DNA from: a virus | Lineage: Duplodnaviria > Caudoviricetes | Reading direction: 5' to 3' (one strand) | Length of the DNA stretch: 50,853 nucleotides | IMG/VR virus record: IMGVR_UViG_3300037468_000175 | Coordinates: 1 to 50,853 of that record | Shown: positions 36,268 through 45,540 of the stretch, in pieces | How positions within the stretch are numbered: position 1 is the first letter of the stretch | How the letters are laid out: every line of letters begins with the position of its first letter | Notes under the pieces: generated by a model | Databases searched by the model: none | Seen by the model: only the letters and a program-made list of their open reading frames with translations | Told to the model about the DNA's origin: nothing | Made by a program: the position numbers and the translations under genes

Positions 36268-36701
36268 CCCCTTTCAAGTTGTTCACGGCATTCTTCTTTA
36301 GTGCCGTGATAAATGTTGAATTGGTCAGAAGCGGTAATGACGGCCATAAACCCCTCGTAGTCACGGGCGTTCTTGGGGATATCTACCTCAAAGCGGTGTA
36401 CCACTTTCAAATCTACGTTGTCCAGTTTCTTGAATTGGGAGATTACGTACTCCAGTTGGCTATCAATCTCGATTTGGAGGGAGAGCAGGGTGGTCCTAAT
36501 GCCGGTGGCAATAACGGTTTTGTTACCGGAAGGGAAGCGGAAACGGAAACGGGCGTGGTAGTCCCTCCGGCCTTCCAGGAATACCGCCCCAAAGACGTTG
36601 AAATCAAACTCTTTGGCTTCGTAGTCTCGAACAAAAATACTCACGGGTTTGGTTTTCTCAAAGTCTATCTCCTCACCCAAGAAAACAATTTTGTCATTCA
36701 T
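36264..36701 (-). CDS. Hypothetical protein
   Basis: SD GGAGGG before MNDK. Confidence 0.55.
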   Translation of the reverse strand: MNDKIVFLGEEIDFEKTKPVSIFVRDYEAKEFDFNVFGAVFLEGRRDYHARFRFRFPSGNKTVIATGIRTTLLSLQIEIDSQLEYVISQFKKLDNVDLKVVHRFEVDIPKNARDYEGFMAVITASDQFNIYHGTKEECREQLERG

Positions 36702-36756
36702 AATTCCCTCCGGAGGAGGTTGGGCTTCTGCGCCAACCCCCACCCGGAAGCAACTA

Positions 36757-37041
36757 TCAGTCGAGGCAGGTCATATAGGCGTTGCTATCCTGGTCAGCAA
36801 CGAAGTACCGGATACGGTCGAAATCAGCCACCTTGATTTTGTGGTCGTTTCTTTCATAAGCATTGTTGGTGGAATACACCCATTGGATTAGGTAGGCAAT
36901 AAGGGGTGTAGTTTCGCAGTCGCCGAAGCCAAAGCGATTATAGGCAGTCACCTTGTCGGTGCGGTCTATCAATTCCTCATAAGGAATACCAACACGCTTG
37001 AATGTATTGATGACGGATGGTTTAATGGTCGTAAGTCTCAC
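36757..37041 (-). CDS. Hypothetical protein
   Basis: NRF.......TPL...DFDR.RYF....D..AYM..LD; start near SD AAGGAGGTGA. Confidence 0.55.
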   Translation of the reverse strand: MRLTTIKPSVINTFKRVGIPYEELIDRTDKVTAYNRFGFGDCETTPLIAYLIQWVYSTNNAYERNDHKIKVADFDRIRYFVADQDSNAYMTCLD

Positions 37042-40525: not shown

Positions 40526-41194
40526 ATGGCAGAAATCATCCAGATACCAGCACCAAACATTCAAATGATTGAGGTCGAGATTAAAGGGACTACTCCCTTA
40601 ATGTTCCACAAATGGTCGGAAAAGGCCAAGGCACAGATAAGGGATAAGCAACAGAAAAAGGCCAAGACCGGCAGACCCAAGAGAGAGCCGGAGGTCGAGT
40701 ACCTGAACTCGTTTTACTATACGCAAGACGGGTTCGTCTCTTTCCCCGCATTGGCGATTAAACAAGCAATTGTGGGGGCGGCTCGGTCAATTGATGGCTT
40801 ACAAATGACGATTATCCGGGGCAACATCTTCGTCGTAGGCGACGTTGATGGCCTGGTACCCGTCTTGGTTGACGGCAAGCCCGTCAAACCCAGTAAGAAG
40901 CTGACACCAGCTAACGGTACTCAAGGTGAAAACATTTTCGCGATTGATACGGCCAACACTAACTTGGTAATGATGGAACATATGGTCAGGGTTGCTCGAG
41001 GGGCAGCCGACCTGCGTTACCGAGGGGCGATTAAGTCTTGGTCAATGAACTTGATGGTCAAGTTTAACGCCGATATGTTCAGCCAAGAACAAGTCGTGAA
41101 TCTCATCCAAACCGCAGGTTTCTCTCAAGGACTCGGCGAATGGAGGCCGGAACGGAACGGCGACAGCGGAACATTTGAGGTCGTACAATCTTAA
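40526..41194 (+). CDS. RAMP/Cas7-like RNA-binding effector (Vipr-like)
   Basis: N-terminal strand IEVEIKGTTPLMFH; C-terminal Gly-rich loop AGFSQGLGEWRPERNGDSGTFEV; directly upstream of the pentamer array. Confidence 0.7.
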   Translation: MAEIIQIPAPNIQMIEVEIKGTTPLMFHKWSEKAKAQIRDKQQKKAKTGRPKREPEVEYLNSFYYTQDGFVSFPALAIKQAIVGAARSIDGLQMTIIRGNIFVVGDVDGLVPVLVDGKPVKPSKKLTPANGTQGENIFAIDTANTNLVMMEHMVRVARGAADLRYRGAIKSWSMNLMVKFNADMFSQEQVVNLIQTAGFSQGLGEWRPERNGDSGTFEVVQS

Positions 41195-41195
41195 A

Positions 41196-41226
41196 TGCCT
41201 GGGGCGCCTGCCCGCCCCACAAGGCA
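41196..41226 (+). promoter_or_regulatory. Leader hairpin of the guide array
   Basis: TGGGGCG-CCTGCC-CGCCCCA stem-loop, extendable by TGCCT/AGGCA. Confidence 0.6.
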
Positions 41227-42070
41227 GTCGTGGAATGGAGTTGTACGATTCGGAGAGGCGGGGGAGGATTGCCAGTAGTGGTTACGAGAGGCCCGGTGCG
41301 TTGTCTGGGGCTCGTTGGGGCGGTGAAATGGTTTGGCAGTAAAGGAATGTTATGTCGGGTACCGGACGTATTTGGTTGGTTTGATTAGGCAGTAGGGGAG
41401 AGTTTTGGTTGGTAAGGTTGGAACGTCTTGTTGAGGTATGGAGTGCCAGTAGAGGAGAGGCAATGTACGGCGGGGCGGGGAGATGAGTTGCTTAGTATGG
41501 CGAGTCACGGCGGGGCAGTCGGGGATGGGTGCGTGACGGAGTGTGTAGGTCGGGCAGTATAGGTGGGTCGAGGCATAATGGGGTTCGTGGCGGTAAGGTC
41601 GGTACGGCAGTCAAGGACCGGATAGGTGGGGTTCGGAAAGGCAATCCGAGTCGGGGTATGTTAGGGCAGTCGTGGCAGTTCACGTCGAGGCCGTATCAGG
41701 CGAAATAAGGTGAGGCGGGGCCAGTTTTGGCAGTAGGGGTAAGGCACGGCTTGGACATTAAGCGGTGGGGTGCCGAATGGCGAGGACTGGCAGTTAGGGA
41801 ACGGAGTGTTAAGGTGTTGTTCGCCTGGGCTGTAAAGGTGTGTATCGGTACTGCAAGGCACTGTTTGGCCGGGACGGGTTGGCCGAGGTCGGGCAGTTAT
41901 GGGGGGCACGGTTCTGGTAGGCAGGTCTAGGAAAGGCAGTCGGGGAGAGTATGGGAGGTATTGGGAACGTAATGGTGTGTTACCGCGAGGTGAGGCAAGG
42001 TTTCGCCAGGATGGAATGGTTGGGCAGTAATGGGTGGTACGGTTGGACAGGTTCGTCAATTTAAGGCAGG
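41223..42070 (+). ncRNA. Array of ~15 guide-like RNA units: GGCA/GCCA delimiter + 7-17 (GGY/GTY/NGY)-NN pentamers
   Basis: GGCAGT/GCCAGT at 41223, 41271, 41335, 41388, 41445, 41514, 41553, 41606, 41665, 41729, 41789, 41892, 41935, 42023 (GGCTGT at 41828, GGCAGG at 42065); strong 5-nt G periodicity; no credible ORF. Confidence 0.85.
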
Positions 42071-42132
42071 GCTTGGTTATGTACCTAGACTAGATTATGA
42101 ATATAATCAAATTAGGAAGGGAGGTGATTCAA

Positions 42133-42552
42133 ATGGATGAAGTAATCAATATCTTAAAAGCAATTGAACAACGTGATGGCGTTCTCCGACCGGAAGTGTT
42201 GGTGGACGAGGCGTCTCAGTCTTCCCATCCCTTACACGGGTACTTTGAATGGGAGGATACGGAAGCCGCCCGCAAGTGGCGCATACATCAAGCCAGGACT
42301 ATGATTATCAAGGTCAAGGTGAGAATAGCTGAAACCACGACCCAGGCATTTCACAACGTCAGGGTCGAGATAAACAAAGTCCCGGTGAGGGGCTATTTTT
42401 CTACCGAACGGGTCTTATCCGATAAGGATATGCTCGGCCAAGTCCTAGCCAGGGCGTTGGATGAATTGGAATACTGGCAGAAAAAATACGAGACTATCAA
42501 AGAATTGGCCGGTATTATCAACCACGATGTCCTCAGCCAAGTCAAAAAATGA
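42133..42552 (+). CDS. Conserved accessory protein of the array locus
   Basis: SD AAGGGAGGTGA; G.L.PE..VD.A....HPLH..FEW.D..AA..WR..QAR..I motif. Confidence 0.65.
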   Translation: MDEVINILKAIEQRDGVLRPEVLVDEASQSSHPLHGYFEWEDTEAARKWRIHQARTMIIKVKVRIAETTTQAFHNVRVEINKVPVRGYFSTERVLSDKDMLGQVLARALDELEYWQKKYETIKELAGIINHDVLSQVKK

Positions 42553-42866
42553 ACAAACTCCAACGGATTCTCTACCAAGTGGCGCACCGTGAATTGGGTG
42601 AATTGGAAGCCGAACGGCAGATTGAGGCGTTATATTCCAGTCAGTATTTGGAAGGAATTAGGGTGGGAATGAAACCGCCCAAAGAGTACGAGTGTTTATG
42701 CGCCAGGTGTGGCCACCTCTTGTTTCCGCAAGCCGATACAGATAAACTAAATGGCATAACCGCAACAAAGGGTACTTGTCAGCGGTGTGGGACTAAGGAC
42801 ACATTCTTAGTTCCGGTCAATGATTTTATGTATGCTAGCGGAGAAGGAGGCGGTGTATGGGATTAA
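42549..42866 (+). CDS. Zinc-ribbon protein
   Basis: CARCG...CQRCG. Confidence 0.55.
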   Translation: MNKLQRILYQVAHRELGELEAERQIEALYSSQYLEGIRVGMKPPKEYECLCARCGHLLFPQADTDKLNGITATKGTCQRCGTKDTFLVPVNDFMYASGEGGGVWD

Positions 42867-43606
42867 AGGAGTATCGGGATATAGAGTCGCTACACATTTG
42901 GGAAAAGAATCCCAGGACTATATCCCAAAAAGACTTTGGCCGTCTCAAGAAGCAACTGAAAAAGTTAGGGCAGTATAAGCCATTGGTCATTACCGAGGAT
43001 GGTACGGTTTTGGGCGGTAATATGCGCCTCAAGGCGTACCAAGAGATGGGAATTAAGGACATCTGGGTCTCGGTAGTCGAGGCCGATACGGAAGTTAAGA
43101 AAGTCGAGTACGCCTTATCGGATAATGACCGAGCCGGTACGTACATTGAAGATGATTTGTTGGCTTTGGTGAAGGATTTAGACCTGGACTTGGACTTATA
43201 CGCGGTAGACCTGGGAGAGATGTCTTCCTTATCAGATTTGTTCAAGGACCAAGAGGTGTTCGATGAGGACTACAGTGACAACCTCGGGGAGATAGTGTAC
43301 GAACCGAAGGAGACCCACCACAAAGTCTCGGATTTGTACCAACCGGACAATAAATACGACGCCGATATCGAGAGTCTGGAGAACGAGGAATTGAAACAGA
43401 TGCTTCGGGCCAGGGCGGCTAACTTCCATAACTTCAACTACGAAAAGATTGCCGATTATTATGCCTACCAGGCGACACCGGAGGAACAGCGGGTGTTTGA
43501 GAAACTGGCGTTGGTCCTCTTGGACCGGAATAAACTTATCGAGAATGGCTTTTCTAAACTCATAGACAAGATTGACCTGGGAGAGACAGAATATGAAGCT
43601 GAGTGA
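42857..43606 (+). CDS. ParB-like nuclease domain protein
   Basis: W.KNPR.I, L...G..KPLVI, GGNMRL.A, DN..AG. Confidence 0.8.
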   Translation: MGLKEYRDIESLHIWEKNPRTISQKDFGRLKKQLKKLGQYKPLVITEDGTVLGGNMRLKAYQEMGIKDIWVSVVEADTEVKKVEYALSDNDRAGTYIEDDLLALVKDLDLDLDLYAVDLGEMSSLSDLFKDQEVFDEDYSDNLGEIVYEPKETHHKVSDLYQPDNKYDADIESLENEELKQMLRARAANFHNFNYEKIADYYAYQATPEEQRVFEKLALVLLDRNKLIENGFSKLIDKIDLGETEYEAE

Positions 43607-44453
43607 AGCGTATGAGAAACTTAACACCATTTACATCATCTCCAAAGGCAGACCCAGGTGCCTGACGGCTCGGACACTAACCAGGATTGGCTACCCAGGC
43701 CAATGGTTTATTGTCTGCGGCAATAATGACAATACTATCGAGAAGTACCAACAGAATTGGGGTAAGGACAAGATACTGATATTTGATTGGTATGAGGAAG
43801 TGAAACATACGGATTTTATGGACAACCTGGGAGTTGAGAAGTATTCGTCTGGGGCGGCACCAGTCAGGAACGCCACGATGGAGATTAGCCGTCAGCGGGG
43901 AGAGATACGGCATTGGCAACTGGATGACGACTATCCGGCTTTCGTTAAGTTCAATACCAAACGAAAGAAGTATGACCGGGTTAGGGATGGGAGGGTACTC
44001 CAGTTTGAAATGGCGAAGATTGCCCTATTCGGCTATGAGGCCGACCTGACTAACGTGGGGTACCAACCCACCTCCAATACCTACCCCGACCAAGCATTTA
44101 ATTTCACCAAGCGGGTGTTCAACGCCCATAACCTACCAAGCGACCCGGATAAGTTTGTCCGGTGGCGTGCCCGAATGAATGACGATACGGTGAACGCTTT
44201 AGATGTATTGGTGGGCGGTGGTTATGAGATATCGGTCAATTATTTGGGAATGGGTACCATCAAAACACAGACAGAAACCGGGGGGAATACTGACCTGTAT
44301 AAGGACAACGGAACGGTTATGAAGACCGCCTATGCGGTTATGAGGTCGCCTAAATCCGTCTCTTTAGTGATTAAGTTCAAGCGTTACCACCACCAGAACA
44401 ATTGGGCTCCAGTTTCGCCCAAACTGATAAGAGACCATTATGCCCGATTATGA
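43593..44453 (+). CDS. TET/JBP-associated (GREB1-like) glycosyltransferase
   Basis: IYIISKGRP, GA...RN, HWQLDDD, W..R.N.D, Q...GGNTD.Y, RYHH..N. Confidence 0.7.
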   Translation: MKLSEAYEKLNTIYIISKGRPRCLTARTLTRIGYPGQWFIVCGNNDNTIEKYQQNWGKDKILIFDWYEEVKHTDFMDNLGVEKYSSGAAPVRNATMEISRQRGEIRHWQLDDDYPAFVKFNTKRKKYDRVRDGRVLQFEMAKIALFGYEADLTNVGYQPTSNTYPDQAFNFTKRVFNAHNLPSDPDKFVRWRARMNDDTVNALDVLVGGGYEISVNYLGMGTIKTQTETGGNTDLYKDNGTVMKTAYAVMRSPKSVSLVIKFKRYHHQNNWAPVSPKLIRDHYARL

Positions 44454-45540
44454 TTATCTTATTGTAGGTGCCGGACTTTTTGGTTCAACTTTTGCTTATC
44501 AAATGACTAAGCAGGGGAAGCGGTGTCTGGTGATTGACCAGCGGTCGCATACCGGAGGCAACTGCCACACCAGCAACCAGGATGGGATTATTGTCCACGA
44601 TTACGGAGCTCATATCTTCCATACCAGCAACCAACGGGTATGGGATTTTGTTAACCAATTCGGGGAGTTCAATCATTATATCAACCAACCTATCGCTATG
44701 GTGGAAGGTGTACCTTACAATATGCCGTTCAATATGAATATGTTTAGCCGGGTGTTCGGGGTGACCAAACCGAGTGAGGCATTCGATATTATCGAGGAGG
44801 AGACGAAGCCGTATCAAACCTTAGTACCGAAGTCATTGGAGGACCAAGCCCTCCAGATGGTCGGCAAAACCATTTTTGAAAAGTTCATCAGGGGATACAG
44901 CGAAAAGCAATGGGGTAGCCCCTGTTCCGACTTGCCGGCCAGTTTTATCAAGCGGTTGCCGTTGCGGTTCACTTACGATAATAATTATTATGACGATACT
45001 TACCAGGGCATACCAATAGACGGATACTCCGGCCTATTTGACCGGATGCTCAGGGGAATAGAGGTGGAGGTGAACGTCAAATACAATGAGGTAAAGAGCC
45101 ACATTGAGGCCAAGAAAACTATTTACACCGGAATGATTGACGAGTTCTTTGACTTCCAGTTCGGTTCACCGGAGTACCGGAGTCTGCATTTCGTTCACCT
45201 GTATAAGGATTGCTACAACTACCAAGGGTGTGCTGTGATTAACTACCCAGGTCTTGATGTGCCGTACACCCGCAGTATCGAGCATAAGCATTTCGCTTTG
45301 GACACCACCTCACCGACCACGATAGTCACGTATGAGTTCCCCGTACCTTACAAGGAAGGTCTTATCCCCTATTATCCGGTAGGCAATAGCCGAGATGTCA
45401 AGATTTATGACAAATATTTGACATTAGCTTCACAGATGTCAAATATAGTTTTTGCTGGTAGATTGGGAAGTTACCAGTACTACGATATGGATGACACGAT
45501 TGACCACGCCTTACAGTTAGCCGATAAGGAATTGCAATGA
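44440..45540 (+). CDS. glf: UDP-galactopyranose mutase
   Basis: YLIVGAGLFG, GGNC, H.YGAHIFHT, Y..KQWG, RLPLR..YDNNY..D.YQGIP, YTR.IEHKHF, PYYP, GRLG.YQYYDMD. Confidence 0.95.
   Translation: MPDYDYLIVGAGLFGSTFAYQMTKQGKRCLVIDQRSHTGGNCHTSNQDGIIVHDYGAHIFHTSNQRVWDFVNQFGEFNHYINQPIAMVEGVPYNMPFNMNMFSRVFGVTKPSEAFDIIEEETKPYQTLVPKSLEDQALQMVGKTIFEKFIRGYSEKQWGSPCSDLPASFIKRLPLRFTYDNNYYDDTYQGIPIDGYSGLFDRMLRGIEVEVNVKYNEVKSHIEAKKTIYTGMIDEFFDFQFGSPEYRSLHFVHLYKDCYNYQGCAVINYPGLDVPYTRSIEHKHFALDTTSPTTIVTYEFPVPYKEGLIPYYPVGNSRDVKIYDKYLTLASQMSNIVFAGRLGSYQYYDMDDTIDHALQLADKELQ

Follow-up and report, generated by a model that had tools for sequence, protein, structure and literature searches.

The locus described here raises two questions: what is encoded by a G-rich stretch between two genes of a phage, and at what might one of its segments be aimed? 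The window, i.e. the whole stretch of DNA that was analysed, spans 50,853 bp and carries direct terminal repeats; it is a complete record of an uncultivated phage, whose DNA is present in sediment and groundwater metagenomes (8 sequencing runs listed, no RNA run among them). Two plus-strand genes are separated by a gap of 902 nt (41195-42096) that contains 382 G, 208 T, 177 A and 135 C, and the G autocorrelation of this gap peaks at lag 5 (0.23), lag 10 (0.25) and lag 15 (0.12), a periodicity beyond what chance would give. No ORF family or Rfam match was found over 41195-42096. Rfam, applied to the whole window at gathering thresholds, returned 0 matches, and blastn and megablast searches with the region and 12 kb around it gave no match among phage records. 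Comparable G-rich pentamer regions are absent from the rest of the window, so that the array is unique there. The locus is composed as follows:

40526-41194, plus strand: vipr gene (222 aa), encoding a RAMP/Cas7-like putative guide-binding protein (assigned by homology and fold)
41160-41189, plus strand: weak sigma-70-like promoter match just 5' of the array (9 of 12 consensus positions)
41195-42096, plus strand: vrRNA array, about 14 units of pentamers (NN + GGY-like triplet) with G[GC]CAGT punctuation
42097-42552, plus strand: vap-like accessory gene, 151 aa from ATG 42097 (phrog_15946)

Three sigma-70-like sites occur in the region, where 2.2 are expected in shuffles; consequently, the promoter match at 41160-41189 is no evidence alone.

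The identity of the upstream gene product was addressed by sequence and structure comparison. In a phmmer search, the 222-aa protein matched PDB chain 36pp_D, annotated as 'SUSP1 Vipr protein', with an E value of 5.8e-5, and a profile built from 22 homologues matched SUSP1 Vipr over chain residues 2-188 with an E value of 1.1e-14. In a Foldseek search, the AF2 model (pLDDT 82.4) was closest to Cas7/Csm3 chains from complexes of types VII and III; 54 matches had E<=0.001, and the E values were about 1e-5 for 8z4j, 6xn3 and 9g9g. In one of the VIPR preprints, SUSP1 Vipr is described as holding the GGY scaffold of its RNA with residues H17, R138, D177, W178 and R179 (10.64898/2026.04.26.720927). 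The window's R166, E205, W206 and R207 align with R138, D177, W178 and R179, respectively, the glutamate opposite D177 being a conservative change, and H28 within GTTPLMFH sits opposite H17 within GTRPFLSH. All 22 homologues share R166 and R207, and W206 is almost always conserved.

VIPR was first described in 2026 as a CRISPR-related DNA silencer (10.64898/2026.04.26.720920, 10.64898/2026.04.26.720927, 10.64898/2026.10.15.759431). According to these VIPR preprints, each GGY/NN pentamer of a vrRNA is bound by one Vipr protomer. Pairing with double-stranded DNA is left to the NN dinucleotides, one target base being skipped, usually at the codon wobble position; the bound complex silences transcription (10.64898/2026.04.26.720920). 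The 902-nt array of the window can be read in these terms. It holds 16 G[GC]CAGT motifs, 13 of which are GGCAGT, and the GG-to-GG spacing at its delimiters is 9 nt, i.e. a phase shift of -1. Its approximately 14 units comprise 7-15 pentamers each, more than the four tandem pentamers beside a vipr gene that are the minimum for a VIPR locus. The scaffold of the array takes the looser form G-[G/T]-Y and is partly degenerate, and nine of the 14 inter-delimiter units are out of register. Because of the homology and fold of the Vipr protein, its conserved GGY-reading residues and the pentamer array, the locus is almost certainly a member of the VIPR systems.

To place the array in a wider context, viral sequences were searched with a delimiter-based pattern, which yielded at least 120 loci. 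Among the matches listed (120 loci), 33 carry G-rich pentamer arrays, and a homology search covered 32 of these 33, L006 being left out. A Vipr homologue lies beside the array in 25 of the 32 loci and a homologue of the vap-like protein adjoins it in 22. The position of the array varies across the family, being before, between or after the two genes, and the module of array plus two genes recurs in about 30 unrelated viral contigs. In the well-formed members L056, L109 and L036, a unit consists of GGCAGT, one linker base and n x (NN + GGY); the terminal GGC merges into the next GGCAGT, giving the 9-nt GG-to-GG step at each boundary. Well-formed arrays of the family often use G-T-Y scaffolds (gtc, gtt).

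The cleanest array was observed in L109 (3225-4400), with about 17 units of 13 x (NN+GGT/GGC), AGTT separators and a lag-5 autocorrelation of 0.57; its Vipr homologue is 23% identical to that of the window. In the Mycobacterium phage Saal (NC_023580.1, cluster F), a clean (NN+GGC) pentamer array of 250 bp with GGCAGG punctuation is located at about 36573-36822 (L122 2475-2724). It reaches a lag-5/10 autocorrelation of up to 0.59 and sits upstream of the Vipr-like gp51. Both gp51 and gp52, annotated as hypothetical proteins, are homologues of the window's two genes.

A G-rich, strand-skewed region may also be a DNA element, such as a packaging site, iterons, a Chi-like cluster or an R-loop origin, or it may give rise to a protein sponge RNA. 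The strand skew, a small terminase gene 3.4 kb downstream of the region and a nearby ParB-like gene fit this explanation, yet the array is flanked by a gene for a Vipr homologue with GGY-reading residues, the module recurs across the contigs described above, and published vrRNAs have the same unit structure of NN followed by G-[G/T]-Y. We therefore hold a DNA element or sponge to be most improbable. Candidates considered and dropped after the Vipr match were a pac or terminase-binding site, a ParB centromere, a Chi-like cluster, an R-loop replication origin, G-quadruplex beads and a TRAP-like ring-protein sponge RNA. Across the window, GGCAGT itself is strand-biased, occurring 34 times on the plus strand (21 of them outside the array) and 8 times on the complement.

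The region directly 3' of the VIPR locus (42857-45540) is likely a DNA-modification cluster, with genes for a ParB-like protein, a TET-associated glycosyltransferase (PF20691) and a UDP-galactopyranose mutase, and it is followed by the small terminase gene at 45537. A Tet_JBP domain was not found in the window; the control for that search was silent too, and the search is hence uninformative. Between 45901 and 48443, the sole large-terminase-like ORF (249 aa, weak PHROG match) precedes two ORFs (138 and 298 aa) without family match; a split or interruption of the terminase gene is possible.

The gene downstream of the array appears from its sequence to be a conserved accessory partner of 151 aa. 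The likelier start is probably ATG 42133, since GGAGGTG precedes it and homologues align from residue 11. The AF2 model of the protein has a pLDDT of 90.8. Residues 1-108 display a weak likeness to winged-helix DNA-binding domains (VIA Z <= 6.0, Foldseek E >= 0.26); neither Foldseek nor VIA gave a significant fold match, and a search for related loci with the vap-like protein alone returned no relative.

Within the array, one unit is of particular interest. The preliminary description had placed it at 41669-41728 and had read from it the catalytic motif of serine recombinases. The unit and its borders are as follows:

41665-41671, plus strand: 5' delimiter, GGCAGT plus linker c, with the standard 9-nt GG-to-GG spacing to 41674
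41672-41731, plus strand: guide unit of 12 pentamers, in register from the delimiter at 41665 to the delimiter at 41729
41674-41679, plus strand: internal GGCAGT, a possible alternative unit boundary that lacks the 9-nt shift
41729-41734, plus strand: 3' delimiter GGCAGT, which opens the next unit

From 41672, the plus strand reads GTggc AGttc ACgtc GAggc CGtat CAggc GAaat AAggt GAggc GGggc CAgtt TTggc. The strict 5-nt spacing reported for the twelve dinucleotides (GT AG AC GA CG CA GA AA GA GG CA TT) was confirmed, and the distance from 41665 to 41729 is 64 nt (9 + 11x5), which places the unit in register. As for the earlier coordinates, the end is correct, TT occupying 41727-41728, while the start was 3 nt early, the true frame beginning at 41672. 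Under the rule of NN pairs with one skipped base, the unit decodes to V-[S/R]-T-[D/E]-R-[Q/H]-[D/E]-[K/N]-[D/E]-G-[Q/H]-[F/L], as AG may stand for Ser or Arg, CA for Gln or His, AA for Lys or Asn and GA for Asp or Glu. Thus, the spelling VST[DE]RQ[DE]K[DE]G is an allowed reading, but it is not the unique one, given the Ser/Arg, Gln/His and Lys/Asn alternatives.

The internal GGCAGT, thought earlier to make the boundary ambiguous, is a real motif without the 9-nt step of true delimiters. It is composed of the scaffold GGC, the second dinucleotide (NN2, AG) and the T of an unusual T-initial scaffold, and a GCCAGT likewise lies inside the unit at 41720. Being part of the internal motif, NN2 may be punctuation rather than guide; a cut of the RNA at 41674 would leave a guide that begins at NN3 and reads T-D/E-R-Q and onwards.

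These features bear on whether the unit is a decaying or dispensable member of a degenerate array, one that either escapes processing into a guide of 12 units or has lost its live target. GGY is retained in only seven of its 12 scaffold triplets, three scaffolds (ttc, tat, aat) are of rare type, nine of the 14 units of the array are out of register, and the internal GGCAGT could split the unit. Moreover, a 60-nt contig from one metagenome run connects 41680 directly with 41736, 55 nt (41681-41735) being absent, and in the same run this deleted form has a depth of 3.1 versus 5.3 for the full form. Against decay, all 12 triplets have a pyrimidine as their third base, the 12 pentamers stand in register between standard delimiters, and gtc and gtt are common scaffolds in well-formed arrays elsewhere. 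No base differences were found within 41681-41728 across the four metagenome runs compared, and a positional fit to a protein motif, as set out below, is not expected to persist in a decaying unit. On balance, we judge decay to be decidedly unlikely. The 55-nt deletion is a unit-level polymorphism between two TGGCAGT copies that coexists with the full form. Four of the six base differences seen over 2.1 kb fall in the array, at 41735, 41904, 41918 and 41933.

Sequence collections were then scanned for candidate targets of the guide. The exact pattern of NN1-10 had 0 matches in the viral, genome and metagenome collections, and the guide showed no self match to its own phage genome at <=3 mismatches. 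NN1-8, when required to be exact, gave nine viral matches, one of which is a clear serine-recombinase N-terminus (L125, 18/24 read bases), and NN5-12 gave 17 viral matches, 0 of them in recombinases; both counts are essentially at chance level. A homologue search with the N-terminal 40 residues of the L125 recombinase returned the query only. With NN2 and NN5 left free, 22 matches were obtained, two in recombinases (VSTDKQEKEGYS).

With NN7-8 left free (GT.AG.AC.GA.CG.CA.......GA.GG), 20 viral matches were obtained. Fifteen of these 20 are in frame on xRVST[DE]RQ. The gapped-pattern search of serine recombinases that the preliminary description had proposed thus does yield in-frame matches, and the outcome it had named as counting against the idea, no in-frame match to recombinases, did not occur. 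One of the 15 RVST[DE]RQ sites agrees with the guide at 21/24 read bases, seven at 20/24 and seven at 19/24. Pfam Resolvase (PF00239) was found in all nine ORFs tested, starting from profile position 1-3, and four of these nine also contain the domain set of large serine recombinases. The guide footprint begins at codon 10-19, near the 5' end of the gene, in eight of the ten ORFs measured. Judged by eye, the 15 sites represent about nine lineages. No recombinase was found at >=22/24, the best recombinase being the one at 21/24.

The closest match of all lies elsewhere. Requiring NN3-12 to be exact produced one genome and one metagenome match of identical sequence, in frame and at 23/24, in a GGDEF-EAL gene (VITERHDKEGQL) that is situated among housekeeping genes; the genome is a Pseudolabrys MAG, and the metagenome contig is identical to it in sequence. 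When all matches of >=80% that are wobble-aligned are considered together, eight recombinase sites stand at 20-21/24 and the GGDEF-EAL site at 23/24, and at this collection size chance also yields such matches. The unit may also be a functional VIPR guide whose natural target is another gene, the recombinase likeness being a coincidence of a purine-rich, codon-like string. Besides the better score of the GGDEF-EAL gene over any recombinase, this explanation draws on the behaviour of the other guides. Ten other array guides scanned on recombinase-bearing loci and eight scanned on 2.5 Mb of collected loci did not rise above shuffled guides, so there is no convergence of guides on recombinase loci. 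Furthermore, VSTxxQ is spelled by only one of 152 in-register units from 29 loci, the window's own, and is thus not a recurrent theme in the family sample.

The GGDEF-EAL match itself, however, probably arises by chance. About one chance occurrence of an exact 20-base pattern is expected in 596 Gb (calculated), and the gene lies among housekeeping genes. Two other guides of the array had no match in the same genome, and in 400 further genomes of its phylum no match at <=3 mismatches was present, neither in a recombinase nor in a GGDEF gene. Also weighing against another target is the outcome of the controls on the recombinase fit described next; all in all, we consider it unlikely that the guide is meant for a different gene.

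For these controls, 106 unique viral recombinase N-termini were collected by the pattern IYxRVS(TCN)TxxQ alone, which avoids the guide's Ser codon. It should be kept in mind for all statistics on the recombinase fit that the VSTxxQ motif was selected post hoc. When V-S-T-x-x-Q is kept constant, the remaining eight dinucleotides reach +11.0 bits against the profile of the 106 N-termini. None of 268 windows from other guides reached this value (maximum 9.3), the P value against random background is 2.5e-5, and a score this high is attained by a fraction of 3.1e-4 among 390,737 in-frame coding windows. The true order of the dinucleotides ranks 7 of 6720 permutations. The mean best match of the guide to the 106 sequences is 13.25, compared with 11.45 +/- 0.30 for 300 shuffled guides (maximum 13.11) and at most 12.12 for 88 other natural guide windows. 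A score of >=16/24 is reached with 16 of the 106 N-termini, as opposed to a shuffle mean of 0.25 and a shuffle maximum of 5. The positional fit to recombinases therefore exceeds that of shuffled and unrelated guides and survives composition-preserving controls.

One of the nearest known systems is the type II VIPR of Escherichia phage SUSP1, made up of Vipr, vap1 and vrRNA1-4; its vrRNA4 targets the excision recombinase of the F5 satellite and covers the codons just upstream of the catalytic Ser of that recombinase (10.64898/2026.10.15.759431). The window resembles SUSP1 in its homologous Vipr with conserved GGY-reading residues, in GGY/NN pentamer guides of 9-16 units and in a two-gene locus with flanking guide genes on an integrase-less phage. 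In both, the bases read by the guide fall on codon positions 1 and 2 at a serine-recombinase active site, albeit as a candidate in the window. As regards the phage itself, a window-wide search found neither a PF00239 nor a PF00589 recombinase; its genome is without detectable integrase.

The two systems also differ. The identity of the Vipr proteins is low, the single-sequence match (E 5.8e-5) spanning only residues 160-209. The SUSP1 vrRNAs measure about 100 nt and possess a structured 3' tail plus a pseudoknot, whereas the window's units are divided only by GGCAGU and a linker base, with the -1 shift. Unlike SUSP1, the window has its roughly 14 units in a single array between vipr and vap and uses a relaxed scaffold. 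The SUSP1 target has been proven experimentally, while the recombinase target in the window is a sequence-based candidate. A counterpart to the layout may be the 'staggered' vrRNA arrays of other VIPR types, in which abutting units lack long tails and the end of one unit marks the start of the next (legend of fig. S18, 10.64898/2026.04.26.720920). Their 1-nt overlap may correspond to the 9-nt boundary spacing observed here. With the Cas7 backbone of Class 1 CRISPR complexes (Csm3, type VII Cas7), VIPR shares the fold, one protomer per short RNA segment and periodic base flipping. In contrast to CRISPR, the VIPR locus is devoid of a repeat-spacer array, of Cas1/2 and of other cas genes; its RNA period is 5 nt and its target period 3 nt, versus 6 and 6 in CRISPR, and its guide information is noncontiguous.

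How the unit would act can be outlined by analogy with SUSP1 and P. fulva. The array would be transcribed on the plus strand and cut into units at or near GGCAGU. One Vipr protomer would bind each pentamer, burying the GGY-like triplet and exposing NN. The exposed NN would pair with double-stranded DNA, every third target base being skipped, and the resulting R-loop triplex would block transcription. With the skipped base on the wobble position, the unit would read V-S-T-D/E-R-Q-D/E-K-D/E-G, the catalytic-serine motif at the 5' end of a recombinase gene. Most likely, the unit would serve to shut down the recombinase of a rival integrative element, for instance a satellite or a prophage.

The preliminary description had gone as far as naming the integrase of a prophage or other competing element as the target. 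The fit and its controls agree with this, but the best recombinase reaches only 21/24 and no competing element was found. We lean towards a serine recombinase as the candidate target of the unit, because the fit survives the controls, actual recombinase genes differ from the guide at 3-5 read bases, the phage itself lacks a recombinase and SUSP1 provides a precedent. Our confidence is held back by the post hoc motif, the lack of a near-perfect match, the location of the best match in another gene and the lack of guide convergence.

If the catalytic motif is indeed targeted, escape would require changes of active-site residues. The guide may even be a class-level anti-integrase weapon against many unrelated large serine recombinases: since only codon positions 1 and 2 of the near-universal V-S-T-D/E-R-Q-x-x-E-G, right at the 5' end of the gene, are read, one vrRNA of an integrase-less phage could silence many recombinases, and candidate targets within 3-5 mismatches are found in about nine viral lineages. 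In this scenario, GGCAGU with its -1 phase shift would be the signal at which one Vipr filament stops and the next begins. We regard this broader reading as possible, if rather doubtful.

The 2026 preprints already contain this type of system, the rule for decoding it and guides aimed at recombinase active sites. Possibly new, or sparsely described, may be the GGCAGU punctuation and the placement of a guide on the catalytic-serine motif itself. A GGCAG-punctuated array family of about 30 viral loci is defined here, and the array of phage Saal would offer a tractable laboratory system. The one experimentally proven natural target of VIPR is the active-site region of a satellite serine recombinase in E. 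coli. If the target proposed here is true, aiming at recombinase active sites would be a general strategy of VIPR phages, those with distant Vipr proteins included, and the noncontiguous code would lock onto residues that cannot mutate. Should the guide act at the level of the class, whole classes of satellites and prophages, and not one rival, would be immobilised.
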